Shown in pieces: positions 33 to 15,288 of a DNA stretch of 64,000 nucleotides. Source of the DNA: an uncultured bacterium (GTDB taxonomy: Bacteria > Electryoneota > B3-LCP); NCBI GenBank assembly GCA_964623265.1, contig CAZUTK010000005.1, positions 746 to 64,745 on the forward strand, in the 5' to 3' direction. The notes below the pieces were generated by a model, which made no database searches, was not told the DNA's origin, and saw nothing but the letters and a program-made list of their open reading frames with translations. Each line of letters starts with the position of its first letter. Position 1 is the first letter of the stretch. Made by a program: the position numbers and the translations under genes.

Positions 33-2675
33 GTGATCTCCGTCCAGGCGATGAGTCCGCCGTCTTCTGAGCGGAGTAACACGGGGCTTATTCCCTCGTG
101 GAAAGTGATCGAGACTGACGCCTGGAAGAGGCTGATGGCGGCGGAAAATCGGTGTGCACCGATCCCTCCAACTTCGCCGCCGCCGACTCGCGCCGACCTC
201 TGGGCGGTGCTGATGAACGGCGGCTATGATTCCGGCAACAATCATGTGCGCTATTGGAACGATCTCTCCAATATATACATTACTTTGAATTACACGTATG
301 GCTACGCCGACGACCATATCATCGTGCTCTGTTCGGACGGAACCAATCCGGCGCCGGATCAATCCAACGGGCAGAATTCCAATCCCGACCTGGACAACGA
401 CGGCGATGCCGACATTATGTACTCCTGCATTTTGTCCAATGTGGATCTGGTGTTCGGCTGGCTGGCGACGCATCTGACCGCGGACGACAAATTGTTTATT
501 TTCACGACGGATCATGGCAGTTCGGCGGGCGGATGGAATACGGTGCAGAACCTTTGGAACCACGAGGAGCTGACGGACGCGCATTTTGCGGAACTGCTGG
601 CGGCGCTGCCGCAGTGCGAGATAATCTGCACGCTGGAACCCTGTTATTCCGGGGGATTTTTGGATAACATCGTGGTGCCGCCGGGACCGGTTGTGGCATC
701 ATCCGCTTGCCGTTATGATGAATCTTCCTGGGCGATGTCCAATCTCGAATACGACGAATACGTATTTCACTGGACGGCGGCGGTCAAGGGCAGCGATGCG
801 TACGGCGTGCCGGTGAACGCGGATTACAACCACGATGGCATTGTTTCGATGACGGAGGCGTTTCAATACGCATATGAGCACGATATGGCTTCGGAAGAGC
901 CGCAGTACGGGGATTATCCGCACGGCATCGGAGCAGGCATTTCGCTTTGGCCCACCGGACCCGGGCCGTTCCTGGTAGTGGCGGATCGGGTGCTGGATGA
1001 TATCGGCGGCAACAACAACGGTGCTCCCGACCCGGGCGAGACCGTCAGCATGCTGGTGACTTTAAGCAATGTCGGAAACGGATCGGCGACGAACATTCAG
1101 GGGATTTTATCCAGCACCGATCCGTATCTGACGATCACGCAGAACTTTGCCTCTTATCCGAATCTGGGGCATTTCGAACAGGGGCAGGGGACTCCGGCTT
1201 ACCAGATGGAGATCAGCGGTGCCTGTCCTCAGGGGATGACGGTGACGTGCAATCTGCATCTGGAAGCGGACAGCGCCTACACCAACGACGTCTTGATCGT
1301 CTTCGTGGTGGGGGATCCCATCTTCAACCCGACTGGACCTGACCAGCACGGATATCTAGCTTACGATCCCTTTGACATCCCGGAGCTTCCGCAGTACGAA
1401 TGGGTGGAGATCAGCGCGGATTCGGGCGGTCCGGGGACGATGGTGCCTTTCATCAGCGACGATCAGACGTTCAGTTACGCTCTGCCCTTTTCCTTCCGCT
1501 ATTACGGCGTAAATTTCGACTCGTTCACGGTGGCGACCAACGGCTGGATCGGGATGGGGGTGATTACGGCGGATGATTACTCCAATTCCGGTATTCCCAA
1601 CGCCGATGGACCGCCGAATATGATCGCGGGGTATTGGGAGGATCTATCGCCGCAGCGCGCCAATTCCGGGAAGGTCTGGCGCTGGTTCGACGCCGCCGGT
1701 CATCGCTTAATCGTGGAGTATAATCACGTGGAGCAGTATGCGCCCACGGGCAGTTTCGAAACCTTCCAGGTCATCCTCTTCGATCCGGTGTCTTATCCGA
1801 CCCCGACCGGGGATGGGCGGATCCTGTTCCAGTACAAACAGATGTCCGCCGCGGCGGCGGATGAAGGCACGATCGGCATCGAGAACGGCGCGGAAAACGA
1901 CGGCTTGCAGTATTTCTTCGACGGCGCTTACGATCCCTGCGCGCATGCGGTCACCGAGCGGTTCGCTCTGCTGTTCACCACGGCGGCGCTGGTGCCGACG
2001 GTCACGGTTTCTCTGACGCCTTATGGGACTCCCATCCAGATCCCCGCCGGCGGTGGAAGTTTCAACTTCAACATCGCGGTCGCCAATCAGGAATCTGCGC
2101 CGCAGTCGTTTCAGGGCTGGTGCGATGTGACGCTGCCGAACGGCTCCACGTACGGTCCGGTGCTGGGTCCCATATCGCTGACCCTACCGTCCGGCGCATC
2201 CATCAACCGCGACCGCACGCAGTCCGTGCCGGCTTCTGCGCCCGCAGGAGCTTATTCCTATAATGCTCATGTGGGGAATTATCCATCTACGATCTGGTCC
2301 AGCGACAGCTTCCCCTTCACCAAGCTGACCACGGGCGACGGCGTTCCGGTTTCCGGCTGGGAGAACACGGGGGAGAGCTTCGATCTTTCGCCGGTCGCGG
2401 TGAGTGCGCCGTCGGAGTTCGCTCTGCGCGGGGCATACCCTAACCCGTTCAACCCTGCGACGCGGATTCGGTATGATCTGCCGGAGGCGGTCCGGGTCAG
2501 CTTGAAGGTGTACGACATCCAAGGGCGGCACGTCGCGGATCTGGCGAACGGTTGGCGTGAGGCGGGGGCTCACGAGGTGAGCTTCGATGCGTCGCAGCTG
2601 CCGTCGGGCGTCTATGTGGTGCGCTTGGAAGCGGGAGATTTCAGCGCCGCATCAAAGATTGTGCTGATGAAGTGA
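33..2675 (+). CDS. Secreted gingipain-like (C25 / clan CD) cysteine peptidase with T9SS C-terminal sorting domain. Probably 5'-partial: the frame is open to the window edge and there is no signal peptide.
   Basis: His-Gly/Cys dyad context 'TTDHGSS' ... 'EPCYSGGF', compare 'ITCNTGGF' in the 44015 protein. A C-terminal ~80 aa 'YPNPFNPATRIRYDL...VYVVRLEAGDFSAASKIVLMK' is typical of a Por/T9SS CTD. An internal ~200 aa region is paralogous to 44015..48172 ('LPFSFRYYG...TPTGDGxILFQY'). The frame is open from nt 3. Confidence 0.6.
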   Translation: MISVQAMSPPSSERSNTGLIPSWKVIETDAWKRLMAAENRCAPIPPTSPPPTRADLWAVLMNGGYDSGNNHVRYWNDLSNIYITLNYTYGYADDHIIVLCSDGTNPAPDQSNGQNSNPDLDNDGDADIMYSCILSNVDLVFGWLATHLTADDKLFIFTTDHGSSAGGWNTVQNLWNHEELTDAHFAELLAALPQCEIICTLEPCYSGGFLDNIVVPPGPVVASSACRYDESSWAMSNLEYDEYVFHWTAAVKGSDAYGVPVNADYNHDGIVSMTEAFQYAYEHDMASEEPQYGDYPHGIGAGISLWPTGPGPFLVVADRVLDDIGGNNNGAPDPGETVSMLVTLSNVGNGSATNIQGILSSTDPYLTITQNFASYPNLGHFEQGQGTPAYQMEISGACPQGMTVTCNLHLEADSAYTNDVLIVFVVGDPIFNPTGPDQHGYLAYDPFDIPELPQYEWVEISADSGGPGTMVPFISDDQTFSYALPFSFRYYGVNFDSFTVATNGWIGMGVITADDYSNSGIPNADGPPNMIAGYWEDLSPQRANSGKVWRWFDAAGHRLIVEYNHVEQYAPTGSFETFQVILFDPVSYPTPTGDGRILFQYKQMSAAAADEGTIGIENGAENDGLQYFFDGAYDPCAHAVTERFALLFTTAALVPTVTVSLTPYGTPIQIPAGGGSFNFNIAVANQESAPQSFQGWCDVTLPNGSTYGPVLGPISLTLPSGASINRDRTQSVPASAPAGAYSYNAHVGNYPSTIWSSDSFPFTKLTTGDGVPVSGWENTGESFDLSPVAVSAPSEFALRGAYPNPFNPATRIRYDLPEAVRVSLKVYDIQGRHVADLANGWREAGAHEVSFDASQLPSGVYVVRLEAGDFSAASKIVLMK

Positions 2676-2698
2676 ACAAGACAGGCGGAAATCTACGA

Positions 2699-2732
2699 CA
2701 GGGGACGCGGGTGCGCGTTCCCTGTTTTTTTG
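2699..2732 (+). terminator. Rho-independent terminator after the first protease gene.
   Basis: An 11-bp GC-rich stem 'caggggacgcg/cgcgttccctg' (one G-U wobble), loop 'ggtg', followed by T8. Confidence 0.6.
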
Positions 2733-2911
2733 TTGCACTGCAACAAATTCTATAGAAAAAATGTAGTAACGGAAGTGTCAGATTAAAAGACTTCAAGCGA
2801 TAAAATTCACATTGTGAAATTTTTCAATTTAGTGCTTGATTTCCCGCGCGTCTTTTATTACCTTGTTGCCGACGGAAGAAATACGACAATTATGTTGCAA
2901 ATATGTTGCAA
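2730..2911. promoter_or_regulatory. Candidate operator/promoter region of the hdr/frd-like operon with repeated TGTTGCAA elements.
   Basis: A perfect 8-bp inverted repeat TTGTTGCA-c-TGCAACAA lies at 2730-2746. A direct repeat 'ATGTTGCAA at ATGTTGCAA' lies at 2892-2911, and TTGTTGC at 2863-2869. All are within 300 bp upstream of the ATG at 3006. Confidence 0.35.
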
Positions 2912-3005
2912 CGGGAACATCGCGCGGGGAATGCCCTTCGATCCGACCTCCGAATGGGGGCACGTTGACATCCGGATCCCCCGAAGATAAACGACGAGAA
3001 CACCC

Positions 3006-3413
3006 ATGCCGATCCTCCTATCCGACGATACCGTTTCCCTCGAATTCATCCGCAAAGTGGAAGAGATCAGCGGCGAGAATTTCAGCCAATGCATGCAATG
3101 CGGCACCTGTTCTGGAATGTGCCCGATGATCGGGCAGATGAATCTGACGCCTCGCCGCCTGCTGTTGCTGACCCGGTTCGGACAGAAGGAGACGGTGCTG
3201 GGCGCCAACACCATCTGGCTGTGTGCCTCGTGCCACAGCTGTCTGGTGCGCTGTCCGCGCGGTTTGGATCTGCCCAAAATCATGGAGGCGGTGAGGCAGA
3301 TCGTCTTGCGCACCAATGAGAATTATCTCGAGCCTTTCGAGGTGCCGGACGAGATTTTGGAAGGTGTGCCTCCGATCGCACTGGTGAGCTGTTTCCGCAA
3401 ACACACGGCGTAA
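3006..3413 (+). CDS. hdrC: Heterodisulfide reductase subunit C-like protein with two [4Fe-4S] ferredoxin motifs.
   Basis: 'CMQCGTCSGMCP' and 'CASCHSCLVRCP' are two CxxCxxCxxxCP motifs. The size (135 aa) fits HdrC. Confidence 0.65.
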   Translation: MPILLSDDTVSLEFIRKVEEISGENFSQCMQCGTCSGMCPMIGQMNLTPRRLLLLTRFGQKETVLGANTIWLCASCHSCLVRCPRGLDLPKIMEAVRQIVLRTNENYLEPFEVPDEILEGVPPIALVSCFRKHTA

Positions 3414-3421
3414 GGTTGAAG

Positions 3422-4312
3422 ATGAAAATAGGCTACTACCCCGGTTGCACTCTGAAGTCGCACGCGAGAAATTTGGAACGATCGGCGCTGCATTCGCTGG
3501 CGGTTTTGGGCGTCGAAGTGGAAGAGCTGGAACGCTGGAACTGCTGCGGAGCCGTTTATTCGCTGGCGGACGATGATTTGATCCACATTTTGGCGCCGGT
3601 GCGGGATCTCATCCGCGCCAAAGATCAGGGTTTCGATACCGTGATGACGCTCTGTTCGATGTGCTACAACACGCTGGCTCGCGCCAATTTGTTGATGAAG
3701 CACGACGAAGTCAAGCGCAAGACCATCAACACTTTTATGGAAGAAGAGAGCGATTATTCGGGAGAAGTCGAAGTCGTTCACTTGTTGAATTATTTGCGCG
3801 ACCGCGTCGGGTGGGATAAGGTGCGAGCCGCGGTGCGCCAACCGCTGCATGGTCTGAGGCTGGCACCATACTACGGCTGCACATTGACCCGTCCCCGCGA
3901 GGTTTCCATAGATCCGGCGGTGGATCCGGTCGTGTTCAAGGATTTTGTGGAAGCGCTGGGGGCGGAATACGTGGATTTCAGCCGAGCCGCGGATTGCTGC
4001 AGCTCCTATCAGATGATTTCGAATCCGGAGGCGGCGCTGGAGACAGCCGCAGGAATCATCGCTTCCGCCGAAGAAAAGCAGGCGGAGGCTCTGGTGCTGA
4101 GCTGTCCGCTTTGCGAATATAATTTAGGACGCAGGCAGGGGGATATCATCCAGAAGCATCAGGAATTGAAGCCGCTGCCGGCCTATTATTTCACTCAGCT
4201 TCTGGCGGTCGCTCTGGGGCTGGATGCCGGGATCGCGCAATTCTCGACGCATGGAGCGAATGCTTCGGGACTGCTGGAAAAAAAGGGATTCATCAAAGCG
4301 ACTTGTCTCTGA
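3422..4312 (+). CDS. hdrB: Heterodisulfide reductase subunit B-like (CCG-domain) protein. It could equally be a type-E succinate dehydrogenase SdhE / methylmenaquinol:fumarate reductase MfrE-like subunit.
   Basis: Two Cys-rich CCG-type motifs ('WNCCGAV...CSMCYN', 'YYGCT...DCCSS...LSCPLCEYN'). Size ~297 aa. It is adjacent to the hdrC-like gene. Confidence 0.6.
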   Translation: MKIGYYPGCTLKSHARNLERSALHSLAVLGVEVEELERWNCCGAVYSLADDDLIHILAPVRDLIRAKDQGFDTVMTLCSMCYNTLARANLLMKHDEVKRKTINTFMEEESDYSGEVEVVHLLNYLRDRVGWDKVRAAVRQPLHGLRLAPYYGCTLTRPREVSIDPAVDPVVFKDFVEALGAEYVDFSRAADCCSSYQMISNPEAALETAAGIIASAEEKQAEALVLSCPLCEYNLGRRQGDIIQKHQELKPLPAYYFTQLLAVALGLDAGIAQFSTHGANASGLLEKKGFIKATCL

Positions 4313-4412
4313 GGATAGAACCACGCAGGTACGTGCTGCCTGAAATAAACTTACTTAAGGAAATTTCTATCACCGGGATGAAACCCGGATCTAAGGATCA
4401 ACGAGGCGTTCG

Positions 4413-5225
4413 ATGAGCGTGAAAGAAAAGGCCGTTCAGGAACCGGAAATGCCGGTGGTGCAAGAGAATTTGATCCCCATCTATATCATGGGGAAAAGAT
4501 ACGATGTGCCGGAATCCCTGACGATCATGAAGGCGATGGAGTATGCCGGATACAAGTTCATCCGCGGCGCGGGCTGCCGCGGCGGCGTCTGCGGCGCCTG
4601 CGGGACGGTGTACCGGCTGCCGGGCGACTATCACATCCGAGTCGGGCTGGCTTGCCAAACGGTGGTGATTCCCAATATGTATCTGACGCAGATTCCGTTT
4701 TATCCCGCCAACCGCGCGGTCTTCGACTGGAACAGCATCAAGGGAGAGGCGGAGGAGGTCTATAAAGCCTATCCTGAGCTGTTTCGCTGTCTGGCGTGCA
4801 ACGCCTGCTCGAAGGTTTGTCCGATGGATATCCCGGTCATGGATTACATCGCGGCGATCAAGCGCGGGGATCTGGATAAGGCGGCGGAGATTTCGTTTGA
4901 CTGCATTCAGTGCGGATTGTGCGCCACGCGCTGCATGGGGGAGATGGCGCAGTATCACATCGCGCAGATGGTGCGCCGTTTGCGGGGCCGTTTTATCTCC
5001 AAGCCCAGCGCGCATTGCGACCATCAGGTGGAAGCCATCCGGTCGGGATATTACGACGGCTACATCAACGAATTGAAGGCGTTGGGGGCAGTGGATCCCT
5101 TCGCGGCGAAAAAAGGGGATGCAAATATCGAGAAGCTGAAGAAGCTCTACAAGGAGCGGGAAGAGGAGCCGCACACCGCGGACGATCGTTGGAAACCGCA
5201 GAGCGATTACGCTCTGTTGAAATAG
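4413..5225 (+). CDS. Succinate dehydrogenase / fumarate reductase iron-sulfur subunit family protein (2Fe-2S plus two 4Fe-4S motifs).
   Basis: A 2Fe-2S motif 'GCRGGVCGACG...C'. Motifs 'CLACNACSKVCP' and 'CIQCGLCATRC'. It is followed by the flavoprotein gene. Confidence 0.6.
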   Translation: MSVKEKAVQEPEMPVVQENLIPIYIMGKRYDVPESLTIMKAMEYAGYKFIRGAGCRGGVCGACGTVYRLPGDYHIRVGLACQTVVIPNMYLTQIPFYPANRAVFDWNSIKGEAEEVYKAYPELFRCLACNACSKVCPMDIPVMDYIAAIKRGDLDKAAEISFDCIQCGLCATRCMGEMAQYHIAQMVRRLRGRFISKPSAHCDHQVEAIRSGYYDGYINELKALGAVDPFAAKKGDANIEKLKKLYKEREEEPHTADDRWKPQSDYALLK

Positions 5226-5314
5226 GAAGACGTTGGACCGGCGCAGACCGCGCCGCACCGGCTGAGCTGCGAAGGGAGAATCAAGCCGGCGAAATTGAGA
5301 GGAAACGAGGAGAA

Positions 5315-6988
5315 ATGGGCTATCCGGACGGATTAAAGCAGTTGATCAAGAGGGTGGAAGCGACCCGCCCCGAGCGGATCGCACGCAAGAAAGCCGGTCA
5401 GGAGTTTCCGGCGTTGAGCTTGGAAGATCGGCACAAGGTGTTGCACGCTTTTCACCCGGATGTCAAGGAAGAGGGGCGCCGGGAAATCACGGTGGGTCCG
5501 AATAAGGGGTACCGAATCTGCCATGAGATGGTGGATTTGCTGGAGGCGCGCAGCCGCGTCAATCCGGATAAGATTGACCTGACGCGTTGGGATTATGAAA
5601 CGGATGTTCTGGTGATCGGCGGCGGCGGCGCCGGCACGGCTGCAGCTCTGCTGGCTCAGGAACAAGGCGCCAAGGTGATCATCGCCACCAAGCTGCGCCA
5701 CGGCGACGCCAATACGATGATGGCGGAAGGCGGCATCCAAGCCGCCACGAAAGGGTGGAAGGATTCGCCTTACTATCACTACTTGGACGTGATGGGCGGG
5801 GGCCACTTCACCAATGTGCCGGAATTGGTGGAGAAGCTGGTCACGGAAGCGCCGGACGTCATCCGCTGGCTGCTGTCGCTGGGCTGCAACTTCAGCAAAT
5901 ATGAAGACGGCACTCTCCAGACGATGCACGGGGGCGGCACCTGCCGCAAACGGATGCATTTCGCGGCGGATATCACCGGCGCGGAAATGATGCGCACCAT
6001 CCGGGACGAAGCCCGCAACCGCGTGAAGGATATCACCGTGCTGGAATTTTCGCCCGCCGTGGAATTGATTCTGAACGATAAGGGTCGCTGCGCCGGCGCG
6101 GTGCTTTACAATATGGAAACCGCCGAATACATCATCGTAAAGGCGAAATCGGTGGTGATGGCGACCGGCGGTAGCGGCAGGCTGCACGTGCAGAATTTCA
6201 TGACCACCAACCACTATGGCGCCACCGCCGACGGGATTGTCCTGGGCTATCGAGCCGGCGTTCCGGTTTGCTTTCTGCACACCATCCAATACCATCCCAC
6301 AGGCGTCATTTATCCGGAACAGGCGGAAGGCATCCTAATAACGGAGAAGTTCCGCGGCGCCGGAGCCAATCTGGTCAACGTGGACGGCGAACAGTTCGTA
6401 TTCGAACGGGAGCCTCGGGACATTGAAGCCGCCTGCATCATCCGCGAATGCGTGGAGCGGGGCAAAGGCGTGCCCACTCCGACCGGCAAGTTCGGGGTCT
6501 GGCTGGACAGCCCCATGCTGGATTTGATGTTCGGTTCGGGATATGTGAAGAAGGAGTTCCCCGGCAAGCACATCTTGTACAGCCGGTTCGGCATTGACAT
6601 CGGCAAGGAACCGATGCTGATTTACCCCACGCTGCACTATCAGAACGGCGGACTGGAGTTCAAGGCGGACGGTTCGACCCGCATTCCAGGATTGTTTGTA
6701 GCCGGGGAAGTCGGCGGAGGCGTGCACGGGGAGAACCGGCTGATGGGCAATTCCCTGCTGGACATCATGGTCTTCGGGCGCATCGCGGGGACCAGCGCCG
6801 GAAAGTATGCGCTGAATGATTTTCAGGATGGAAAGCTCACGTTGGATCACGTCAGAAAATATCACCAGGAATTAGAAAAAGCGGGAGTCGGACAGGATCG
6901 CATCGCGCCGATGCTGCTGCCGGATTATACGCTGGAGCACGTCAAGGCGAAGCAGTTGACGGCGCATTACGAGGGCACGCTTCGCTAA
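5315..6988 (+). CDS. Fumarate reductase / succinate dehydrogenase flavoprotein-like subunit, non-covalent FAD type.
   Basis: 'DVLVIGGGGAGTAAA' dinucleotide fold. 'NTMMAEGG' has Asn where SdhA carries the covalent-FAD His ('SHTVAAQGG'). 'YHPTG' active-site motif. Start chosen at ATG 5315 with RBS 'gaggag', so the annotated 4910 start that overlaps the upstream gene is rejected. Confidence 0.65.
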   Translation: MGYPDGLKQLIKRVEATRPERIARKKAGQEFPALSLEDRHKVLHAFHPDVKEEGRREITVGPNKGYRICHEMVDLLEARSRVNPDKIDLTRWDYETDVLVIGGGGAGTAAALLAQEQGAKVIIATKLRHGDANTMMAEGGIQAATKGWKDSPYYHYLDVMGGGHFTNVPELVEKLVTEAPDVIRWLLSLGCNFSKYEDGTLQTMHGGGTCRKRMHFAADITGAEMMRTIRDEARNRVKDITVLEFSPAVELILNDKGRCAGAVLYNMETAEYIIVKAKSVVMATGGSGRLHVQNFMTTNHYGATADGIVLGYRAGVPVCFLHTIQYHPTGVIYPEQAEGILITEKFRGAGANLVNVDGEQFVFEREPRDIEAACIIRECVERGKGVPTPTGKFGVWLDSPMLDLMFGSGYVKKEFPGKHILYSRFGIDIGKEPMLIYPTLHYQNGGLEFKADGSTRIPGLFVAGEVGGGVHGENRLMGNSLLDIMVFGRIAGTSAGKYALNDFQDGKLTLDHVRKYHQELEKAGVGQDRIAPMLLPDYTLEHVKAKQLTAHYEGTLR

Positions 6989-7446
6989 ATGAATGCGAGT
7001 CGCGGGATGGTGCCGCGGCGTCGCAATAAAAACAATACAAATGATTTGTTTTTATTGTCAGGATAATTGTTATAATTATATCAATATATGAAGCTGCAGG
7101 AGAATTCATTCCGAGGCGAGGCGTGGAGAAGCTCAATCCCGAAGAACAGGACGGAACGATCGGGCGACGGCAGTGCGGCATTCCGGAGAAAGGGGTGCTC
7201 TTCCTCGTCTCTACGCCCCATCCAGCGGCTCTCTGCCTTCCCTTGCCTGCGAACTGCAGACGACTTCCGGATGAACTGCAACTTCTTTTGTGATACGAAG
7301 TCTGCAAGGACTTCAACGGACGTTGAAAAAACAGCATCTTCCTGTTGAAATTCACCCGGAAATTGCATATATTGCAGGGAGACAAATAAAAATATTCACA
7401 ATACTTGTTATGATGTTAACAAAGAAGATAAAAAGAAAGTGGCGAC

Positions 7447-8988
7447 ATGGCATCCCTGAATGAACAGACCACCGTTCAGACTGAAAGAGAAAAGCCACGC
7501 GACGCTGTGGAATCCTCTCGTTCGTTCAACTTGCAGGTCATCGCGAAGAAGTTGGATTGGAAGAGAGGGTTCTTCATTTTTTTGGGTCTGGCGCTTTTCT
7601 TGGCGGTTTATTGCGCGCCGCCTTTTGCGGATGCTGTAGATCCTCAGGGAAAGCATTTCGTCCTCTCTCAGGAAGGGAAAGCCGCATTGGGGCTCTTCCT
7701 GCTGGCTTCCACCTGGTGGATTTTCGAGGTGGTTCCGATCGGCGTGACGGGGATCCTCATCGGAGTTGTGCAGGCGCTGTTTCTCATCCGCAAAGCGGAC
7801 GTCGCGTTCAGCAATTTCTTCGATCCGTCGGTCTGGTTCATCTTCGCTTCGCTGGTCATCGGCAGGACCTTTACTAAAAGCGGGCTGACGCAGCGTATGG
7901 CGTATAATATGCTGGTGATGGTCGGCGAGAAGACCAGCATGATCTATCTGGGGTGTTTTGCGCTGATCGCGCTGCTCACGCTGCTGATGGCTCACACCGC
8001 CGTAGCCGCCACGGTCTATCCGCTTCTGGCGGCGATTTATTCCTTGTATCAGGAGGACAACCAGCCCACCCGTTTCGGCAAGGGGTTGTTCATCGGGATG
8101 GCGTTCGTGGCTGGGGCCGGCAGCATCGTGACGCTGTTGGGCGCCGCTCGCGGCGCCGTCGCCATCGGCTTCTTCAAGGATATGGCGGGACGGGAGATTT
8201 CGTTTGCGGAGTACACCTATTACCAGCTCCCCATCGGATGGATTATGGTTCTGCTGCTTTGGGCGTTTTTCATGATCTTCTTCAAGCCAGAGCGGAAGAC
8301 CATCCCGGGACTGCGCGAACGGGCGAGAGGGCTGGCGGCACGGCTGGGTCCGATGAAGAAGGTGGAATGGCAGACTCTGATCATCGTTCTGGCGGCGATT
8401 CTCATTCTCAGCCTGAGGTCTTTTATACCCGCCTTGATGCCGTTGGACAAGACGGGCATCATTCTGGTGACCACGCTGCTATTTTTCCTTCTGAAGATTC
8501 TGACGCTGCAGGATCTGGAGGAGATTCCTTGGAACATCATATTGCTTTTTGGCGGAGCGATGAGCATCGGCTTTTGCCTCTGGCAGACGGGGGCGGCAAG
8601 CTGGCTGGCTGTGCATTGGTTGACTTTGTTCCAACATGCGCACTGGTTTCTCTTCATCATGGGCATCGCCTTTTTCGTGTTGATCATGACCAATTTCATT
8701 ATGAATGTGGCGGCGATCGCCATTTCGATGCCGATCGCTCTGGTGATCGCTCCCTACCTTGGTGTAGCGCCGGAAATCGTGCTCTTCGCTTCCCTGGTGA
8801 CGGCGGGTATGCCCTTTATGTTGTTGATCGGGGCGGCGCCCAACGCCATAGCCTACGAGAGCAGACAATTCACATCTGCTGAATTTTTGCGCGCCGGGAT
8901 CGTCGCCAGCGTCTTGCTCCTGCTGGTGTTGGGAGTATTCATTCTGGTGATCTGGCCTCTGATGGGGATGCCGGTTCTGGCGAAGTGA
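7447..8988 (+). CDS. Anion permease of the ArsB/NhaD superfamily (DASS/SLC13-like); likely a di/tricarboxylate or other anion transporter.
   Basis: Multi-TM protein of 513 aa. The C-terminal hairpin motif 'GAAPNAIAY' is paralogous to the permease domain of the 11317 gene ('GTPNNAIAF'). It sits at the head of the signalling operon. Confidence 0.55.
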   Translation: MASLNEQTTVQTEREKPRDAVESSRSFNLQVIAKKLDWKRGFFIFLGLALFLAVYCAPPFADAVDPQGKHFVLSQEGKAALGLFLLASTWWIFEVVPIGVTGILIGVVQALFLIRKADVAFSNFFDPSVWFIFASLVIGRTFTKSGLTQRMAYNMLVMVGEKTSMIYLGCFALIALLTLLMAHTAVAATVYPLLAAIYSLYQEDNQPTRFGKGLFIGMAFVAGAGSIVTLLGAARGAVAIGFFKDMAGREISFAEYTYYQLPIGWIMVLLLWAFFMIFFKPERKTIPGLRERARGLAARLGPMKKVEWQTLIIVLAAILILSLRSFIPALMPLDKTGIILVTTLLFFLLKILTLQDLEEIPWNIILLFGGAMSIGFCLWQTGAASWLAVHWLTLFQHAHWFLFIMGIAFFVLIMTNFIMNVAAIAISMPIALVIAPYLGVAPEIVLFASLVTAGMPFMLLIGAAPNAIAYESRQFTSAEFLRAGIVASVLLLLVLGVFILVIWPLMGMPVLAK

Positions 8989-9024
8989 CAGTTCGCTTAC
9001 GGCGGGATAACTGCGCATATCGGG

Positions 9025-10707
9025 ATGGCGGAAGAATCGAAAAACACCGCGACGGCGGGCGGCAGGATCCTCCGGGATCGGTATTATCGGGAACTGCTGC
9101 GCAAGAATCTGTTGCGTCTGGCGTTCACCTATCTCGCCCCTCTCGTTCTCCTGACCATCTATTTTTACGCGCAATATGTGAATATATCCCGGGAGAGCCG
9201 GGCGCACCATCTGAAATCCGTGGCGGAGCATCAGGCGAATACTCTGGATCTGTTTTTGAATGAGCGCGTCGTCAATCTCGCCAATTTGATTGACGATCCC
9301 AAGTTGAAGATTCCGCCAACCGGCGGCGCGATGGAAGTGATGCTGCACCAGTTGAAGAAAAACAGCGATACATTCACGGATGTGGGTTTTTTCGATTCGA
9401 CCGGCGTGCAGCTCGCCTACGAAGGTCCCTTGCCTTTTTTGGAGAACCGAAATTATTCCACGGAACCGTGGTTCGTCCGCTTGCGGGGGAAGGACGATCA
9501 CTTCATCATTACGGATAACTATCTCGGATTCCGGCAAAAGCCGCATTTCACGATTGCGGTGAGCCGCGAAATTCAGAATCGCTACGTGGTATTGCGCGCG
9601 ACGTTGGATCCGCAGAAGTTTTATGAATACGTCATTGCGCAAGAAGGCTTGAGCGATGTGGATTTGTCGGTGGTCAACCGCGATGGGATCTATCAATTGG
9701 TGTCGCCGAAGATCGGGCTGCCGTTGGAGAGCTCATCGGTAGTGCCGCCGTTGTCGCCGCGCCTGGGCTGGTTGAATTCCCGCGGGGAAGCGAACTCGGG
9801 GGAATTCGCTTACGCCTGGCTGCGGAACGCGGATTGGGCGGTCATCGCCAGACCCTCTGGAGAGAGCGAAAAGATTCCTCTGTTCAGCAGCCGAATGGGG
9901 ATTCTAGTCTTTTCCGCCGTGATCATTTTCGGCGTGCTGTCCGTGATCGTCATCCGTTCGAAGAAGCTGGTGGAGCTGCAGATTGAGAAGGAGATTACCA
10001 AGGCGCAGTTCGAACATGCCGCCAAGCTGGCGTCCGTGGGGGAGTTGTCCGCCGGCATCGCGCACGAGATCAACAATCCGCTGGCGATCATCGCGGAAGA
10101 GGTCGGATTGATCAAAGACCTGATGAATCCGGAGTTCAAGACGGGCACCGCCTTCGAGGATTTAAAGCCTCACCTCGACAACATCCACGACGCGGTCTTC
10201 CGTTGTCGCGACATCACCCGCAAGCTGCTGAGTTTCGTGCGCAAGACGGACATCAAGCTGAAGCCGCACCACATCAATATGTTGATTGACGAAATCGTGG
10301 ATGCCTTCTGGATACGCGAGATGGAAGTATCCAACATCGTCATAGAGAAGAGATACGCCGCGGATCTGCCGGAGATCGTTACGGACGGGAATCAGCTCAA
10401 GCAGATCTTTTTGAACATTCTGAATAACGCCGCGGACGCAATCACTCCGCCCGGAAAGATTACGATATCCACCTCCTATGCGGATGACCACATCTCCGTC
10501 GCCATCTCGGATACAGGCAAGGGCATCACTCAGGAACAGATGGAGAAGATTTTTCTTCCGTTTTATACGACCAAGGAACCGGGGAAGGGCACCGGTTTAG
10601 GGCTGTCGGTGAGCTACGGGATCGTGAAGAGTCTGGGGGGGAAGATCCTGGTCGAAAGCATTCCGGGGAAGGGGAGCGTTTTCACGGTGGTGCTGCCGGT
10701 AAAATAG
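9025..10707 (+). CDS. Sensor histidine kinase with a periplasmic Cache-like domain between two TM helices.
   Basis: H-box 'AGIAHEINNPLAII', N/G-box region 'LNILNNAADA...DTGKGI...GTGLGLSV'. Two hydrophobic segments flank a ~250 aa extracytoplasmic domain. Paralog of the 15285 kinase. Confidence 0.8.
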   Translation: MAEESKNTATAGGRILRDRYYRELLRKNLLRLAFTYLAPLVLLTIYFYAQYVNISRESRAHHLKSVAEHQANTLDLFLNERVVNLANLIDDPKLKIPPTGGAMEVMLHQLKKNSDTFTDVGFFDSTGVQLAYEGPLPFLENRNYSTEPWFVRLRGKDDHFIITDNYLGFRQKPHFTIAVSREIQNRYVVLRATLDPQKFYEYVIAQEGLSDVDLSVVNRDGIYQLVSPKIGLPLESSSVVPPLSPRLGWLNSRGEANSGEFAYAWLRNADWAVIARPSGESEKIPLFSSRMGILVFSAVIIFGVLSVIVIRSKKLVELQIEKEITKAQFEHAAKLASVGELSAGIAHEINNPLAIIAEEVGLIKDLMNPEFKTGTAFEDLKPHLDNIHDAVFRCRDITRKLLSFVRKTDIKLKPHHINMLIDEIVDAFWIREMEVSNIVIEKRYAADLPEIVTDGNQLKQIFLNILNNAADAITPPGKITISTSYADDHISVAISDTGKGITQEQMEKIFLPFYTTKEPGKGTGLGLSVSYGIVKSLGGKILVESIPGKGSVFTVVLPVK

Positions 10708-10736
10708 AGAAGAAGAAATAAAGGGAGAGGCCGGTT

Positions 10737-11312
10737 ATGGCATTGGAGAGAGTGAAAGATATCATGTTGTCTCTGGACGACTACGCCGTCGTGGGGATGG
10801 AAGCCACGATGGTGGATGCGTTGTGCGCTCTGGAGGCGGCGCAGAAGAAACTTCCGCCGGATCGCCAGCCCCATCGCGCCGTTCTGGTGGTGGACGACAA
10901 GGGCAACATCGTCGGGAAGTTGGGGCATCTGGCATTCTTGAAGGGACTGGAGCCGAAATACGACAAGATCGGCGACATCAACGTGCTTTCCCGCGTCGGA
11001 CTCAGCCAGGAATTCATCAATTCCATGCTGGACAATCTGAGTCTCTGGAAGGAGAGCTTTGAGGATTACGTGCAGCGGGCTCGCAGGACGAAGGTGAAAG
11101 ATGTGATGCACTCGGTTGTAGAGAGCATCTCAGAAGACGCGCCGTTAAGCGAAGCGGTGCATAAACTGGTCATGTATCAGACCCTATCCCTGCTTGTCAC
11201 TCGGGGCGAAAAGGTCGTTGGGATATTGCGGCTGTCCGATCTCTTTTCCGTGATCGCGCATATCATTCGGAAGAAAGTTGGCTGCGGTGAAGAAACAAGC
11301 CAGGAGAAGTGA
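10737..11312 (+). CDS. CBS-pair domain protein (stand-alone).
   Basis: Two CBS-like repeats across ~190 aa. No other domain is evident. Confidence 0.5.
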   Translation: MALERVKDIMLSLDDYAVVGMEATMVDALCALEAAQKKLPPDRQPHRAVLVVDDKGNIVGKLGHLAFLKGLEPKYDKIGDINVLSRVGLSQEFINSMLDNLSLWKESFEDYVQRARRTKVKDVMHSVVESISEDAPLSEAVHKLVMYQTLSLLVTRGEKVVGILRLSDLFSVIAHIIRKKVGCGEETSQEK

Positions 11313-11316
11313 CCCT

Positions 11317-13389
11317 ATGCCGAAAGTGCTGCTAATTGATGATGAGGACAAGTTTCGGACGTCCCTTGCCGACCGCCTCAAACTGCGAGGATATGCGAAC
11401 ATCGCCTTGAACAGCGGTACGGACGTCGTCAAAATCATCCGCAAGGATCCTGAGATTGATGTTGTGGTGCTCGATCGTCAAATGCCGGGCATCAGCGGGG
11501 AGCAGGTATTGCGAGAGATCAAGCAATACCGTCCCGAGTTGCAGGTCATTATGCTGACGGGGTACGGCAGTGTGGCGTCGGCTATGGAAACCGGGCGTCT
11601 GGGCGCTTTCGCCTACCTCGAGAAGCCCTGCGATTTCGACCAGTTGATCGAAACGATCGAGCGGGCGCGCAAGGACAAGGCGCGTGTGCTGGAGAAATAC
11701 GAGATCGCTGAAATCCAGAAGGATTCCCTCCTGAAATGGTGCTGGGGCAGACACAATTACCGTCCGGGGATCATCCTGTTGGGCGTTCTGATTTTCGCCG
11801 CAACGATTCTGATGCCCACTCCGCGCAGGCTGATCGAGATTCTCTCCACTCCGAAGCGGGCTCAAGTTCTAAATCCCACGACGGGCAAGATGGTGGATGA
11901 TCCCAGCGATCCGATCACCGGCTATGCGAGTTTCCGGAAGATGAAGGCGGGGGAGTCCATCGCCGAGTACTACAGTCGTTCCAATAAGCTGGAGAAGACC
12001 GTCAGGGACGAATTCGGCAAGAAGGTGGAGGTGCGCACTCTGACCGCGCAGGAAGCCGCCGTGAAGGCGAAAGTGATGCTGGGGACGCTCTTCGTGGCGG
12101 CGCTTTTCTGGGCGACGGGCGCCATTCCCATCGGCATCACCGCGCTGGTGGTGGGCGTCTCGATGTACTTCATGGGCGTGATGCAGCCGGATGACATTGC
12201 ACAGGCGTACGCCAAGGATGCGGTGATCTTCATCTTCGGGGTGCTGGCGGTGGCGATCGCCATCAGCAAATCCGGTCTGGACAAACGCATCGGGCTATTG
12301 CTGCTGGGACCTTCTAAATCGCTGCCGCGATTGATGTTCTTGTTCCTGCCTATGATTGGGATCGCCTGTTCCTTCCTCTCGGAACACGCGCTGGTGGCGT
12401 TCATCATGCCGCTTTTTATGTTCGTCTACGCAGCTTCCGTGCGGGAGGCGGGGGTCGAGGAGGACGCGCCTCTTGCGGTGATGCTGGTGCTGTCGCTCTG
12501 TTTCGCCGCCAACTGCGGCGGGCCCGGCTCGCCGGCGGCCGGGGGGAGAAACGCCGTGATGGTGGCGATTCTAAGTGATTACGGGGTGGCGCCGTCTTTC
12601 GCGCAGTGGGTGAAATTGGGTCTGCCCTATGTGCCGGTGATGTCGCTGGTCATCGCCACATACTTTTTTCTCGTATTTCGGGGGAAAATCAAGGCGAAGA
12701 AGTTGAATGTCTCCTCGATGGTCAAGCAGGCGGCGGCGAAGATCGGGCCGATGAATCGAAATGAATACATCACCGCCGTGATTCTGATCTTGTTGATCAC
12801 CCTCTGGATCACCGCCAGCGATAAGCTGGGGATGGGCGGTCCAGTGATCCTGGCGCTGGTGCTCTTGAATATTTTCCGGATCGTCACTTGGGGGGACATC
12901 ACCAAGATCCACTGGGAAGTCGTGGCGCTGTACGCCAGCGCCAGCGCAATGGGTAAGGGGCTTGCCGTCACCGGTGCGGCTCTGTTCATGGCGGATGTGT
13001 TCGTCGGGTGGTTGCCGGAATTTCTGCGGACCGGTACAGGATTGGCAGTCGCCAGCAGCATCTTCACAGGGATCACCACTCAGTTTATGAGTGACGGGGC
13101 GACGGTATCCGCCATCGGGCCGGTGGTGGTGCCGATGGCGACGCTGACGGGCACGCACCCTTGGATGGTGGGCTTGGGGGCGGCGTTCGCTTCGTCTTTC
13201 GCGCATATGATGATCATCGGCACACCCAACAACGCCATCGCCTTCACGATGGCAAGAGACCCGGTCACCGGCAAGCAGTTGGTGACATTAGGGGATTTCT
13301 TCAAGCATGGCTTTGTCGTCCTGCTGCTATCCTGGGCGGTGCTCTGGATCTGGCTGTTCTACGGGTACTGGCGCTGGATCGGGTTTTAA
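11317..13389 (+). CDS. Fusion of an N-terminal response-regulator receiver domain to a C-terminal ArsB/NhaD-superfamily (DASS-like) anion permease.
   Basis: REC motifs 'KVLLIDDE', 'VVVLDRQMPGISG', 'IMLTGYGS', 'AYLEKP' in the first ~125 aa, then ~560 aa with 10+ hydrophobic segments ending in 'IIGTPNNAIAF'. The ATG at 11317 has RBS 'caggagaag' and lies directly after the upstream stop. Confidence 0.7.
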   Translation: MPKVLLIDDEDKFRTSLADRLKLRGYANIALNSGTDVVKIIRKDPEIDVVVLDRQMPGISGEQVLREIKQYRPELQVIMLTGYGSVASAMETGRLGAFAYLEKPCDFDQLIETIERARKDKARVLEKYEIAEIQKDSLLKWCWGRHNYRPGIILLGVLIFAATILMPTPRRLIEILSTPKRAQVLNPTTGKMVDDPSDPITGYASFRKMKAGESIAEYYSRSNKLEKTVRDEFGKKVEVRTLTAQEAAVKAKVMLGTLFVAALFWATGAIPIGITALVVGVSMYFMGVMQPDDIAQAYAKDAVIFIFGVLAVAIAISKSGLDKRIGLLLLGPSKSLPRLMFLFLPMIGIACSFLSEHALVAFIMPLFMFVYAASVREAGVEEDAPLAVMLVLSLCFAANCGGPGSPAAGGRNAVMVAILSDYGVAPSFAQWVKLGLPYVPVMSLVIATYFFLVFRGKIKAKKLNVSSMVKQAAAKIGPMNRNEYITAVILILLITLWITASDKLGMGGPVILALVLLNIFRIVTWGDITKIHWEVVALYASASAMGKGLAVTGAALFMADVFVGWLPEFLRTGTGLAVASSIFTGITTQFMSDGATVSAIGPVVVPMATLTGTHPWMVGLGAAFASSFAHMMIIGTPNNAIAFTMARDPVTGKQLVTLGDFFKHGFVVLLLSWAVLWIWLFYGYWRWIGF

Positions 13390-13406
13390 GAGAAAGTGAG
13401 AGAAAG

Positions 13407-13895
13407 ATGCCGGACAAAATCAAACTGCTCATCGTGGACGATGAGGTGAAATTTCTCGATTCCATCGCACAACGTTTGGAGATGCGCGGGCTGCATGTGA
13501 CCAAGGCGAGCAACGGGCAGGACGCCGTGCAATTCGCCCGCAATCAGAAGTTCGATCTGGCGCTGCTCGATCTGAAGATGCCCGGGATGGACGGCAAGCA
13601 GGTGCTGGAAATCCTGAAGAAGGAACACAAGCACATCGAGGTCATCATCTTGACGGGGCACGGATCGCTGGAATCCGCCGTGGAATGCACGAAGCTAGGC
13701 GCCTACGGATATCTTCCCAAACCCTATGAGCTCGACAGTCTGCTGGAGATTCTGAAAGAAGCCTATGAAGCCCGCCTGAAGAAGAAATTCGAGTTCGATC
13801 AGGAGAGGATGGAGAAGATTATGAAGCTGGCGACCGGCAGCAGCCCACTGGGTATCCTGCGATCTCTGCGGGAACTGGATGATGACGAAAAATAA
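13407..13895 (+). CDS. Stand-alone response regulator receiver (CheY-like) protein.
   Basis: 'KLLIVDDE', 'LALLDLKMPGMDG', 'IILTGHGS', 'YLPKP'. There is no output domain. Confidence 0.8.
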   Translation: MPDKIKLLIVDDEVKFLDSIAQRLEMRGLHVTKASNGQDAVQFARNQKFDLALLDLKMPGMDGKQVLEILKKEHKHIEVIILTGHGSLESAVECTKLGAYGYLPKPYELDSLLEILKEAYEARLKKKFEFDQERMEKIMKLATGSSPLGILRSLRELDDDEK

Positions 13896-14028
13896 GACAT
13901 GGGAGCGGCGTTTTTATCGGCAGATCGGAACCCTTCCGGGCTGATGCGAAGTTCACTTATTGAGTATGCGGGGCGAGTTCAGGCTCCGATTTCAACCGGC
14001 GACGATTTAAAAGACGGGGAGAGGACAG

Positions 14029-15288
14029 ATGGCGGTCATAGCTCTGTTCAGCGGATCCTACTGCCACGGCGAAGAGGCGGCGGAAGCCCTGGCGAAAAAA
14101 CTGGGATATCCGTGTATCGAAAAGCAGGTGCTCGCCGAGACGGCTAGCCGGTACTCTCTGTCAGCGGACAAGATTCAGAGGGCGATTCAAGGTCCTCCGC
14201 CGCTTTTCGCCTCCAAATATCATCGGGAAAGGACGGTGATACTGTCCCGTTTGAAAGCGGTGCTGGCGGAATTCATCCAGCCGGATCGGGTGATCTGCCA
14301 TGGGTGTCTGAGCCATCTGATTTCCCGGGACATCACTCATGTCCTGCGGGTGCTCCTCATCGCCAATCAGGATTACCGCGTGCAGACGGCGATGACCGCC
14401 GCGAAACTCTCCCGAAAAGAGGCGGTCAAGCAGATCAAGAAGGACGATGAGGCGAAGGCGCAGTGGACGCAGTTGTTGTTCGAAAAAGCGCCTTGGGATC
14501 CGAGCCTTTACGATATCGTGCTCCCCATGCATGAGACTTCGGTTGAGGAGGCGGTTCGGATTATCGCCGAAAACAGCGCTAAAGAGGCCGTAGCGACGAC
14601 TTCGCAATCTCGGCAAGCCGCCGCGGATTTTCTGCTTCAAGCCCGCGTTGAAACGGCGCTGGGCGAAAAAAGCGACGGGCTGGAAATCCGGTGCACGGAC
14701 GGGCAGGTTACACTTGTGATCAACAAGACCGTCCTGCGGCTGGATCCATTTCAGGAAGAAATCCGGCAGATCGCTGCTGCGGTTCCCGGAGTGAGAAAGG
14801 TGGAGACGAAAGTGGGTCCGAAGTTCAATCAGCCCAGCATCATCCGCGATGTGGATCTCGAGTTGCCGAAGAAGGTTCTTCTGGTGGACGACGAAGTCGA
14901 GTTCGTGCATACTCTTTCGGAGCGGTTGCAGACCCGCAATCTGGGATCGTCCGTCGTGTACGACGGGGAGCAGGCGCTGAATTTCGTCGCCACGGAGGAG
15001 CCCGAAGTGATGGTGCTGGATTTGAAGATGCCCGGGATTGACGGCATTGAAGTTCTGCGCCGGGTCAAGCACGACCATCCCAATGTGGAGGTGATTATCC
15101 TGACGGGACACGGATCGGAGCGGGAGGAGGCGTTGGCGAAGGAGCTGGGGGCTTTTGCTTATCTCCATAAGCCCGTCAACATTGACGTGCTGGCGAAGAC
15201 GATGAAGGAAGCCTATCGCAGGATCAGCGAGAAGAAGGCGTCCGCGGGCGGTGAATCCGGGAAGAGCTCCGCGAATTCGTCATCGTGA
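14029..15288 (+). CDS. Three-part fusion: cytidylate-kinase-like family N-terminal domain with a degenerate P-loop, a BON-like middle segment, and a C-terminal REC domain.
   Basis: N-terminal 'IALFSGSYCHGEEAAEALAKKLGYPCIEKQVL' resembles the Cytidylate_kin2 family but lacks the GxxGxGK/GSGG P-loop. C-terminal 'KVLLVDDE...VMVLDLKMPGIDG...IILTGHGS...YLHKP' is a REC domain. Confidence 0.55.
   Translation: MAVIALFSGSYCHGEEAAEALAKKLGYPCIEKQVLAETASRYSLSADKIQRAIQGPPPLFASKYHRERTVILSRLKAVLAEFIQPDRVICHGCLSHLISRDITHVLRVLLIANQDYRVQTAMTAAKLSRKEAVKQIKKDDEAKAQWTQLLFEKAPWDPSLYDIVLPMHETSVEEAVRIIAENSAKEAVATTSQSRQAAADFLLQARVETALGEKSDGLEIRCTDGQVTLVINKTVLRLDPFQEEIRQIAAAVPGVRKVETKVGPKFNQPSIIRDVDLELPKKVLLVDDEVEFVHTLSERLQTRNLGSSVVYDGEQALNFVATEEPEVMVLDLKMPGIDGIEVLRRVKHDHPNVEVIILTGHGSEREEALAKELGAFAYLHKPVNIDVLAKTMKEAYRRISEKKASAGGESGKSSANSSS

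Follow-up and report, generated by a model that had tools for sequence, protein, structure and literature searches.

An HdrCB-linked, anchor-less flavoprotein operon as a candidate soluble fumarate reductase in an uncultured Electryoneota bacterium

The thiol:fumarate reductase of Methanothermobacter (TfrAB, EC 1.3.4.1) is a soluble enzyme that has no membrane anchor, lacks the histidine for covalent binding of flavin adenine dinucleotide (FAD), keeps an intact fumarate site and takes up electrons through two CCG (HdrB-type) motifs. These traits are shared, with a predicted electron entry of the same kind, by a four-gene operon (hdrC, hdrB, an Fe-S protein gene and a flavoprotein gene) at positions 3006-6988 on the + strand of a 64,000-nucleotide stretch of DNA, hereafter the window, from an uncultured bacterium (GTDB lineage Electryoneota; B3-LCP; GenBank assembly GCA_964623265.1, contig CAZUTK010000005.1, positions 746 to 64,745). 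TfrB, however, is one polypeptide, whereas here its counterpart is split into an HdrC-like and an HdrB-like protein, accompanied by a separate subunit with [2Fe-2S]/2x[4Fe-4S] patterns. The donors of TfrAB are coenzyme M and coenzyme B (CoM/CoB), which the hosts of the operon, bacteria represented by metagenome-assembled genomes (MAGs), are to our knowledge not known to make. We read the operon as a cytoplasmic fumarate reductase complex that is fed through HdrCB and resembles a split thiol:fumarate reductase, a reading that we hold with confidence and doubt in about equal measure.

Several other described systems invite comparison. In sulfur-oxidizing Gammaproteobacteria, tfrAB is interleaved with korABCD and flxABCD-hdrABC, and a bifurcating supercomplex of the reductive tricarboxylic acid (TCA) cycle has been proposed (Rubin-Blum et al. 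2019, PMC6315080); this TfrAB/Flx-Hdr proposal finds support in co-expression data (Mitchell et al. 2024, PMC11636981) and similar clusters have been found in Bipolaricaulia (bioRxiv 10.1101/2023.11.26.568696). These bacterial "TfrAB" systems, which are genomic and transcriptomic proposals (PMC6315080, PMC11636981), are like the window operon in being AB-type, anchor-less and gene-linked to Hdr modules, a likeness judged by gene content. Relatives of the operon in Ilyobacter (flx-hdr) and on a Bathyarchaeota-type contig (2-oxoacid oxidoreductase, hdrA-mvhD) lie in such clusters, whereas the window operon has no adjoining kor, flx or hdrA and most related loci carry hdrC-hdrB only. The type-E succinate dehydrogenases and the Mfr-type fumarate reductases (SdhABEF/MfrABE) also join a flavoprotein and an Fe-S protein to a two-CCG subunit that replaces the haem-containing membrane anchors, but the window proteins lack the covalent-FAD histidine, the twin-arginine translocation (Tat) signal and the SdhB signature, miss the respective model cut-offs and include an extra HdrC. 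With HdrABC-MvhAGD the operon shares an HdrB that aligns over its full length with 10 cysteines and an HdrC that matches in its ferredoxin core; it differs in that no HdrA, MvhD or hydrogenase was seen in the window, in its truncated HdrC, and in that the module would feed a fumarate-reducing flavoprotein instead of standing at the end of a chain. Lastly, the FrdABCDE enzyme of Hydrogenobacter thermophilus, attributed to Miura et al. in 2008 (as cited in PMC13147460), is said to be soluble, anchor-less and NADH-dependent, with five subunits working in the reductive direction, and its genes are reportedly dispersed. Relatives of the operon in Cupriavidus and gammaproteobacteria carry a NuoF-like NADH module and can be likened to it by description only; the window genes differ in forming an operon and in having no NAD(P)H-binding subunit.

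The four closely packed genes of the operon are as follows.

3006..3413, + strand: HdrC-like ferredoxin of 135 residues, matching Fer4_8/Fer4_17, predicted to hold 2x[4Fe-4S]
3416..4312, + strand: HdrB-like protein of 298 residues, starting at TTG 3416 (alternative in-frame ATG 3422), with two Pfam CCG domains
4413..5225, + strand: Fe-S subunit of 270 residues, with weak Pfam matches to Fer2 and Fer4_8/9/17/20
5315..6988, + strand: flavoprotein of the SdhA/FrdA superfamily, 557 residues, matching FAD_binding_2 at 239 bits

A first-pass annotation, made from the letters of the window, had proposed these four genes and their domains, and all four are present as open reading frames (ORFs) on the + strand with domains that Pfam and NCBIfam profile searches bear out. 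The flavoprotein is made up of an N-terminal extension (residues 1-95), FAD-binding and capping domains (residues 97-481) and a short conserved tail ending in YEGTLR; the chain ends about 60 residues past the FAD domain, and Succ_DH_flav_C (PF02910), a profile that the first-pass annotation had put forward for checking, gave no match in the Pfam search. Aligned with the E. coli sequences and solved structures, Asn133 takes the place of the covalent-FAD His45 of SdhA/FrdA (counting Met1) and the HPTG motif is kept, both as first noticed by eye. In the E. coli alignment, FrdA residues H232, T234, T244 and E245 (literature numbering) correspond to H327, T329, T343 and E344, and R248, R287, H355 and R390 to R347, R368, H441 and R475, and these eight residues of the dicarboxylate/fumarate site are invariant across 45 homologues. 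Glu121 of the L-aspartate oxidase NadB aligns with Gly206. The AlphaFold2 model (predicted template modelling score 0.80) has FrdA 1kf6 and Sdh1 7d6v as its best PDB matches. The longer frame listed mechanically, 4910-6988, runs into the Fe-S gene; the true start is ATG 5315 with a GGAGA box ahead of it, giving a product exactly as long as over 100 homologues whose alignments cover 100% of the flavoprotein. An N-terminal extension before the GGGGAG motif is thus real, although from this start it measures about 95-100 residues and not the roughly 75 first suggested; it is strongly conserved and is modelled as three helices and a small hairpin (predicted local distance difference test, pLDDT, 72-91). 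One idea considered for its origin is a circular permutation, by which it would be the C-terminal domain moved to the front.

Enzymes with non-covalent FAD, such as FrdA H44 mutants, Fcc3, Tfr and yeast FRD, reduce fumarate and oxidise succinate poorly. By this established work on FrdA H44 mutants and soluble fumarate reductases, the non-covalent-FAD signature of the window flavoprotein argues for one-way fumarate reduction. Together with the intact site, the missing NadB glutamate and the aspartase, DctA, sucCD and 2-oxoacid oxidoreductase genes that neighbour its relatives, it points to the conversion of fumarate to succinate: the substrate pair is probably fumarate/succinate, and fumarate reduction appears to be the likelier physiological direction. 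A DASS permease adjoins the window operon, and we count it among this dicarboxylate context.

No curated NCBIfam cut-off is reached by the flavoprotein. Its top match is TfrA (NF004900), at 329.6 bits against a cut-off of 718 and over model positions 6-423 of 546, ahead of Sdh/Frd TIGR01812 (282 against 567), the NadB models (264-269, with TIGR00551 at 264 against 453) and MFR_Fp_SdhA (238 against 1100), while AprA and TcuA are absent from the best 25 of its 63 matches, all 25 of which score at least 79 bits. Homologues came from 1.8 billion cluster representatives, searched exhaustively with HMMER, and a neighbour-joining tree was built from 386 shared columns with 100 bootstrap replicates and no AprA sequence. 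In this tree the window flavoprotein sits in a clade whose members all carry the N-extension and the asparagine at the histidine site. This clade joins a group of short proteins of about 400 residues with 90% bootstrap and stands apart from SdhA/FrdA/TfrA-type sequences, and a NadB-like group splits off in 100 of 100 replicates. For every scanned member of the N-extension clade the top-scoring model is TfrA, always below threshold; P0301, which represents true TfrA, reaches 765 bits with the same model and has glycine at the covalent-histidine position. The short sister group is found in unrelated contexts (ATP-grasp, Lyase_1 and sugar-modifying, polysaccharide-type genes) and gives no functional lead.

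The established families can be set aside one after another. NadB is excluded by the sub-threshold score, the Glu121 to Gly206 exchange and the 100% bootstrap separation; AprA/AprB by the absence of AprA from the best 25 matches and by a partner with an extra [2Fe-2S]-type N-terminal domain, so that neither of the two identities named as alternatives by the first-pass annotation applies. Classical complex II (types A-D) does not agree with Asn133, the lack of PF02910, the lack of anchor genes and a TIGR01812 score below cut-off. A true TfrA would not score less than half of the TfrA cut-off, and would have a C-terminal domain of about 130 residues, no N-extension of about 95 residues and a single-chain TfrB. 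Type-E Sdh/Mfr is rejected on 238 versus 1100 bits, on asparagine for histidine and on an N-terminus in which, read by eye, no RRxFLK-like motif appears. The first-pass view of a Tfr-like, Hdr-linked fumarate reductase distinct from classical complex II agrees with TfrA being the best NCBIfam match (330 bits); the resemblance it drew to TfrAB, type-E Sdh or Mfr does not extend to membership, as every curated cut-off is missed at least 2-fold and the clade is separate. Judged by its sequence, the flavoprotein belongs to a clade of its own, set by the N-extension and the missing C-terminal domain, and is neither NadB, AprA, canonical SdhA/FrdA nor true TfrA.

The Fe-S subunit combines a ferredoxin-like N-terminal domain with a [2Fe-2S] pattern (C55-x4-C60-x2-C63...C81) and a helical dicluster domain with a 2x[4Fe-4S] pattern (CX2CX2CX3C motifs at C126/129/132/136 and C164/167/170/174), and all 12 of these cysteines are invariant across 46 homologues. 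Its cysteine layout parallels that of SdhB, except that a [4Fe-4S] pattern replaces the [3Fe-4S] pattern of SdhB. Beyond layout, the earlier description of this protein as SdhB/FrdB-like did not hold up: the score with the SdhB model TIGR00384 is 33 bits, where the cut-off lies at 88, hhalign of the family profile against E. coli SdhB returns 16% probability over 30 columns, and the NCBIfam MfrB model has no match. The best sequence and fold matches are instead to dicluster domains of the NdhI/NuoI, HdrC and NfnB/GltD types, with NdhI/NuoI-type ferredoxins as the best PDB sequence matches and FrdB matches weaker and local. At the level of sequence, therefore, the subunit resembles SdhB in cluster layout alone, and membership in the SdhB family is not demonstrable. 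Its partnership with the flavoprotein is firm, since every related locus uncut at that point has the Fe-S gene immediately 5' of the flavoprotein gene and a natural fusion exists (P0242, 727 residues, encoded at 5250-7433 of locus L084) in which the Fe-S subunit is joined to the flavoprotein N-terminus by a linker that runs into the N-extension.

The HdrC-like protein is a dicluster ferredoxin of the HdrC/QmoC-N type (Pfam Fer4_8, E=1e-10) with two CX2CX2CX3C motifs, Cys29/32/35/39 and Cys73/76/79/83, and all eight cysteines are kept in 52 of 52 homologues. Its NCBIfam matches are sub-threshold, both to the QmoC N-terminus (84 bits) and to HdrC TIGR03290 (71 bits against 160). It matches residues 14-103 of a solved HdrC of 183 residues (E=4e-17) and is shorter for want of the C-terminal extension of methanogen HdrC. 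The HdrB-like protein has two complete CCG motifs (Cys11/43/44/80/83 and Cys155/194/195/230/233) of the kind written CX31-39CCX35-36CX2C for HdrB, from which two noncubane [4Fe-4S] clusters are predicted; the CCG domains score 70.8 bits against the PF02754 cut-off of 20.6, all 10 cysteines are kept in 58 of 58 homologues, and the protein aligns full-length to solved methanogen HdrB chains (E=9e-35 to 4e-28). TfrB aligns to the two proteins piecewise, its residues 126-225 to the HdrC-like and 261-464 to the HdrB-like protein, and three separate operon proteins match different parts of the TfrB model NF004898 at 27-38 bits (cut-off 385 bits). Relative to TfrAB, the operon can thus be described as a split TfrB with an additional [2Fe-2S]/dicluster subunit.

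Relatives were sought across GTDB with each species represented by one genome, and at least 570 were found; the best 80 were used as loci, and 72 of these, from more than 10 phyla, were informative. The best 80 are 72-88% identical, and their carriers include LCP-89, Gemmatimonadota, Krumholzibacteria, Phycisphaerae/Planctomycetota, Zixibacteria, Ignavibacteria, Acidobacteriota, Desulfobacterota/Syntrophaceae, Dehalococcoidia and Fermentibacteria, with FCB-group, LCP-89 and "Hatepunaea" MAGs as the nearest named relatives. The compact order hdrC-hdrB-FeS-flavoprotein is present in 53 of the 72 loci and a further four keep it with unrelated inserts, so that 57, the window among them, have HdrCB only, with no hdrA, mvhD or flx within about 6-8 kb. 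In the other 15, mostly from Thermodesulfobacteriota and Syntrophaceae, hdrB is separated from the Fe-S gene by genes encoding a double HdrA, MvhD and an FrhB-like protein. In none of the 72 do the Fe-S and flavoprotein genes occur without nearby hdrCB. The recurrence of the order in 57 loci and, with hdrA/mvhD, in 15 more argues that the arrangement is not due to chance. Among the window's closest relatives, the stretch between hdrB and the Fe-S gene is where genes for an AbiJ-N-domain protein, a HAD hydrolase and a methyltransferase are inserted (L001 5962-6822; L002 5411-7008; L005 4440-6922; L007 6314-7039). This clade, its architecture, its non-SdhB partner and its HdrCB-only form are undefined in the published reports on anchor-less TfrAB.

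The relatives are linked to genes of C4-dicarboxylate and succinyl-CoA metabolism. A sucC-sucD pair adjoins the operon in 12 of the 80 loci (divergently upstream in L027, L029 and L032), and in two Ignavibacteriaceae loci canonical sdhA/sdhB genes, encoding an SdhB with a Fer2_3 domain and an SdhA paralogue (37% identity), follow immediately downstream on the opposite strand (L032 ~9750-12700, L049 ~3270-6200), which implies that the new complex occurs alongside complex II and is no simple substitute for it. Between Thermodesulfobacteriota and Ignavibacteria the flavoprotein shares 76-77% identity, as against 36% for the adjacent SucC and 48-50% for SucD (L069/L036 versus L027/L029), an extreme conservation that reflects either very strong constraint or lateral spread across phyla. 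More distant relatives are found in an archaeal sister family (Bathyarchaeota, Asgard; 55% identity), in which, on one contig of Bathyarchaeota type (L085), genes for a four-subunit 2-oxoacid:ferredoxin oxidoreductase are followed by hdrA, mvhD, hdrC, hdrB, the Fe-S gene and the flavoprotein gene. In Ilyobacter polytropus, a cultured fermenter (pILYOP01, record positions 686728-697469, ILYOP_RS13070-13110; 58% identity), the order is aspartate ammonia-lyase, hdrB, hdrC, hdrA, flxD, flxC, flxB, flxA, Fe-S, flavoprotein, aspartate aminotransferase and TRAP transporter. In a gammaproteobacterial type and the Cupriavidus/Paraburkholderia type of aerobic Burkholderiaceae (46-50% identity; L086/L087 and L094), the Fe-S and flavoprotein genes are followed by a NuoF-like gene for a flavin mononucleotide- and NADH-binding protein, after which comes, on the chromid of Cupriavidus metallidurans CH34, a gene for the dicarboxylate symporter DctA.

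The 5' boundary of the operon is set by a hairpin, the single terminator-like site in a scan of 2500-7600, a scan that found none between the four genes.

2697..2726, + strand: terminator-like hairpin with T-run, 3' of the upstream gene at 33-2675

An AT-rich intergenic region of 330 bp lies on the 5' side of hdrC and an AT-rich spacer of 458 bp bounds the operon on its 3' side, while the hdrB-like gene starts 2 bp past the hdrC-like stop. A sigma-70 promoter scan upstream of hdrC found nothing, a negative that carries no information for an FCB-type organism. The operon holds no genes for membrane anchors or transmembrane proteins, and in none of the four proteins does a 19-residue window reach a Kyte-Doolittle value of 1.6, in contrast to the neighbouring DASS permease with its 137 such windows at 1.6 or more; the absence of anchors proposed at first reading is thereby confirmed.

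From these features we infer that the four proteins form a complex, as well as its catalytic direction and the nature of its donor. The catalytic core would consist of the non-covalent-FAD flavoprotein and its dedicated [2Fe-2S]/2x[4Fe-4S] partner, and the same core may be plugged into various electron-input modules: NuoF-like (NADH), Flx-Hdr, HdrA-MvhD or bare HdrCB. In the window the input module would be HdrC (2x[4Fe-4S]) and HdrB (two noncubane [4Fe-4S]) alone. With HdrCB only, two redox sites are left open, that of FAD and the noncubane-cluster site of HdrB, which makes a mechanism like that of thiol:fumarate reductase the most economical. A thiol or protein dithiol other than CoM/CoB would be oxidised at HdrB, and electrons would pass from there through the clusters of HdrC and of the Fe-S subunit to FAD and fumarate, making the system a bacterial analogue of the methanogen enzyme with four polypeptides and one extra dicluster module. 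For the HdrA-less form, a thiol or dithiol acting at HdrB is proposed tentatively as the donor.

A number of observations weigh against this reading. The window HdrCB is nearest to the HdrCB of HdrA-containing clusters (41-43% identity to Ilyobacter and 36-43% to archaeal proteins, with 29-33% to those of Syntrophaceae), and so may dock onto an HdrA or Flx encoded elsewhere and be no thiol oxidase. No conserved gene for a small thiol carrier of the DsrC, TusE, LbpA or thioredoxin type adjoins the operon, as judged by all-against-all clustering of the ORFs of at least 70 residues in the 80 loci. The SdhE and HdrB scores of the CCG protein are effectively tied, and quinone-linked electron transfer is possible for CCG proteins, SdhE, GlpC and GlcF being examples. 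The structure model of the Fe-S subunit is poor (pLDDT 64), which limits it as a check on the predicted electron wire, and the N-extension clade on its own has 58% bootstrap in a neighbour-joining tree only. Finally, we found no biochemical characterisation of any member of the clade in the literature.

The main rival to a thiol-driven enzyme is that HdrCB forms the high-potential arm of a flavin-based bifurcating complex and docks onto HdrA/MvhD or FlxABCD-HdrA encoded elsewhere, so that ferredoxin and fumarate would be reduced jointly at the expense of NADH or another donor, with no part for a free thiol. The 15 loci in which hdrA and mvhD, with an FrhB-like gene, separate hdrB from the Fe-S gene speak for this, as do the archaeal sister family, with hdrA-mvhD directly upstream and beside a 2-oxoacid:ferredoxin oxidoreductase, the complete flxABCD-hdrABC set of Ilyobacter and the likeness of the window HdrCB to that of such clusters; the model has, moreover, already been proposed (PMC6315080, PMC11636981). 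However, the remaining 57 loci lack all of these partners nearby, hdrA, mvhD and flx were not noticed among the scanned ORFs of the window (annotation covered part of the 64 kb), and the window HdrC is without the C-terminal extension of methanogen HdrC. On balance, we rate bifurcation at this operon as unlikely.

A peripheral-membrane, quinol-linked enzyme like type-E Sdh/Mfr, with the CCG protein as a quinone-reactive anchor, working either as a menaquinol:fumarate reductase or as a succinate:menaquinone reductase, is improbable. It would account for MFR_anch_SdhE (NF042965) being the top NCBIfam match of the CCG protein, at 143.8 bits against 142.7 for HdrB, and for the four-cysteine second dicluster motif of the Fe-S subunit, of a [4Fe-4S] and not a [3Fe-4S] pattern, which has also been reported for type-E SdhB; the canonical sdhA/sdhB beside the two Ignavibacteriaceae operons provides a link to respiratory succinate metabolism. 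That co-resident Sdh argues equally for a different role of the new complex, however, and the scores are far under the cut-offs (143.8 versus 500 for SdhE, with HdrB at 142.7 versus 345, and 238 versus 1100 for the flavoprotein) with no match to MfrB. The covalent-FAD histidine is missing, no Tat motif can be seen by eye in the N-terminus and there is no hydrophobic segment, an HdrC subunit, absent from type-E enzymes, is present, and relatives exchange the HdrCB module for soluble NuoF or HdrA/Flx.

We likewise give little credence to the possibility that the flavoprotein acts on another substrate, be it L-aspartate (NadB-like), tricarballylate (TcuA-like) or another 2-enoate or dicarboxylate, with the Hdr-like module merely an electron sink or source. 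NadB has the same catalytic residues and its models nearly equal those of Sdh (264-269 versus 282 bits), aspartate-metabolism genes flank the Ilyobacter cluster, a CitMHS/DASS-type permease adjoins the operon in the window, and the short sister group occurs in unrelated polysaccharide-type contexts. Nevertheless, the glutamate of NadB is a glycine here, the NadB-like group is apart with full bootstrap support and neither TcuA nor AprA is among the best 25 matches; the aspartase of Ilyobacter yields fumarate, which fits fumarate reduction, and the neighbourhoods with sucCD, 2-oxoacid oxidoreductase and DctA likewise indicate succinate and fumarate. Operation of the complex as a succinate dehydrogenase that passes electrons into the Hdr-type module, for example by confurcation with reduced ferredoxin in syntrophs, is highly improbable: the HdrA-MvhD-FrhB-like version does stand beside sucCD in Syntrophaceae and other Thermodesulfobacteriota, and in syntrophic propionate oxidation it is the oxidation of succinate that is energetically difficult, but non-covalent FAD disfavours that reaction (FrdA H44 mutants), the fumarate/succinate couple lies at a far more positive potential than disulfide and ferredoxin couples, and the core is coupled to an NADH-binding NuoF module in aerobes that already have complex II.

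The window also holds a dense cluster of signalling and transport genes on the 3' side of the operon. The first-pass annotation noted its adjacency to the operon, but a tblastn comparison of its DASS permease, histidine kinase, CBS protein, response regulator-DASS fusion and response regulator found no conserved copy at any of the 80 related loci, and the adjacency is thus specific to this genome and not a trait of the family. One member, a response-regulator receiver fused to a full transporter, is unusual, and its sequence suggests phosphorylation-gated transport. These and other features of the window are as follows.

7447-16997, + strand: signalling/transport cluster with DASS permease, dCache histidine kinase, CBS protein, response regulator-DASS fusion, stand-alone response regulator, cytidylate-kinase-like/response regulator fusion and second dCache kinase
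11278-13389, + strand: response-regulator receiver (residues 17-127) fused to a full DASS-family anion transporter (residues 262-694)
33-2675, + strand: secreted-looking protein of 880 residues with a C-terminal tail that, by eye, resembles a type IX secretion system sorting domain
31740-38090, - strand: ORF of 2116 residues
56112-57752, + strand: aldehyde dehydrogenase-family protein
61030-63729, - strand: molybdoenzyme of the xanthine-dehydrogenase/aldehyde-oxidase type with a fused [2Fe-2S] domain

Anchor-less FrdAB/TfrAB genes have repeatedly been flagged in genome surveys as unexplained fumarate reductases, and a 2026 survey holds that several autotrophs must have fumarate reductases of a novel kind (PMC13147460). 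The physiological disulfide/thiol of bacterial HdrBC-type proteins is itself a long-standing question, and the compact four-protein system described here offers a handle on both. Experiments are feasible, as Ilyobacter polytropus DSM 2926 and Cupriavidus metallidurans CH34 are cultured and have related clusters, that of Ilyobacter being a ready system for an NADH-dependent, possibly bifurcating fumarate reductase. The interest of the family would rise if its bare HdrCB form proved to be a true bacterial thiol:fumarate reductase. Taken at its widest, the proposal is that a clade spanning many phyla consists of modular soluble fumarate reductases and that its commonest form, with bare HdrCB, is a genuine thiol:fumarate reductase of bacteria using a thiol other than CoM/CoB; we regard this as doubtful in its full extent. 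Were it true, the operon would supply the enzyme, so far missing, by which the disulfide substrate of bacterial Hdr-type bifurcating complexes is regenerated, and would also give reductive TCA branches a way to reduce fumarate without a membrane anchor. Should the modular picture prove right, proteins now annotated as "FAD-binding protein" and "4Fe-4S dicluster protein" would become a fumarate-reduction step, and reconstructions of anaerobic carbon and redox metabolism would change in many uncultured phyla.

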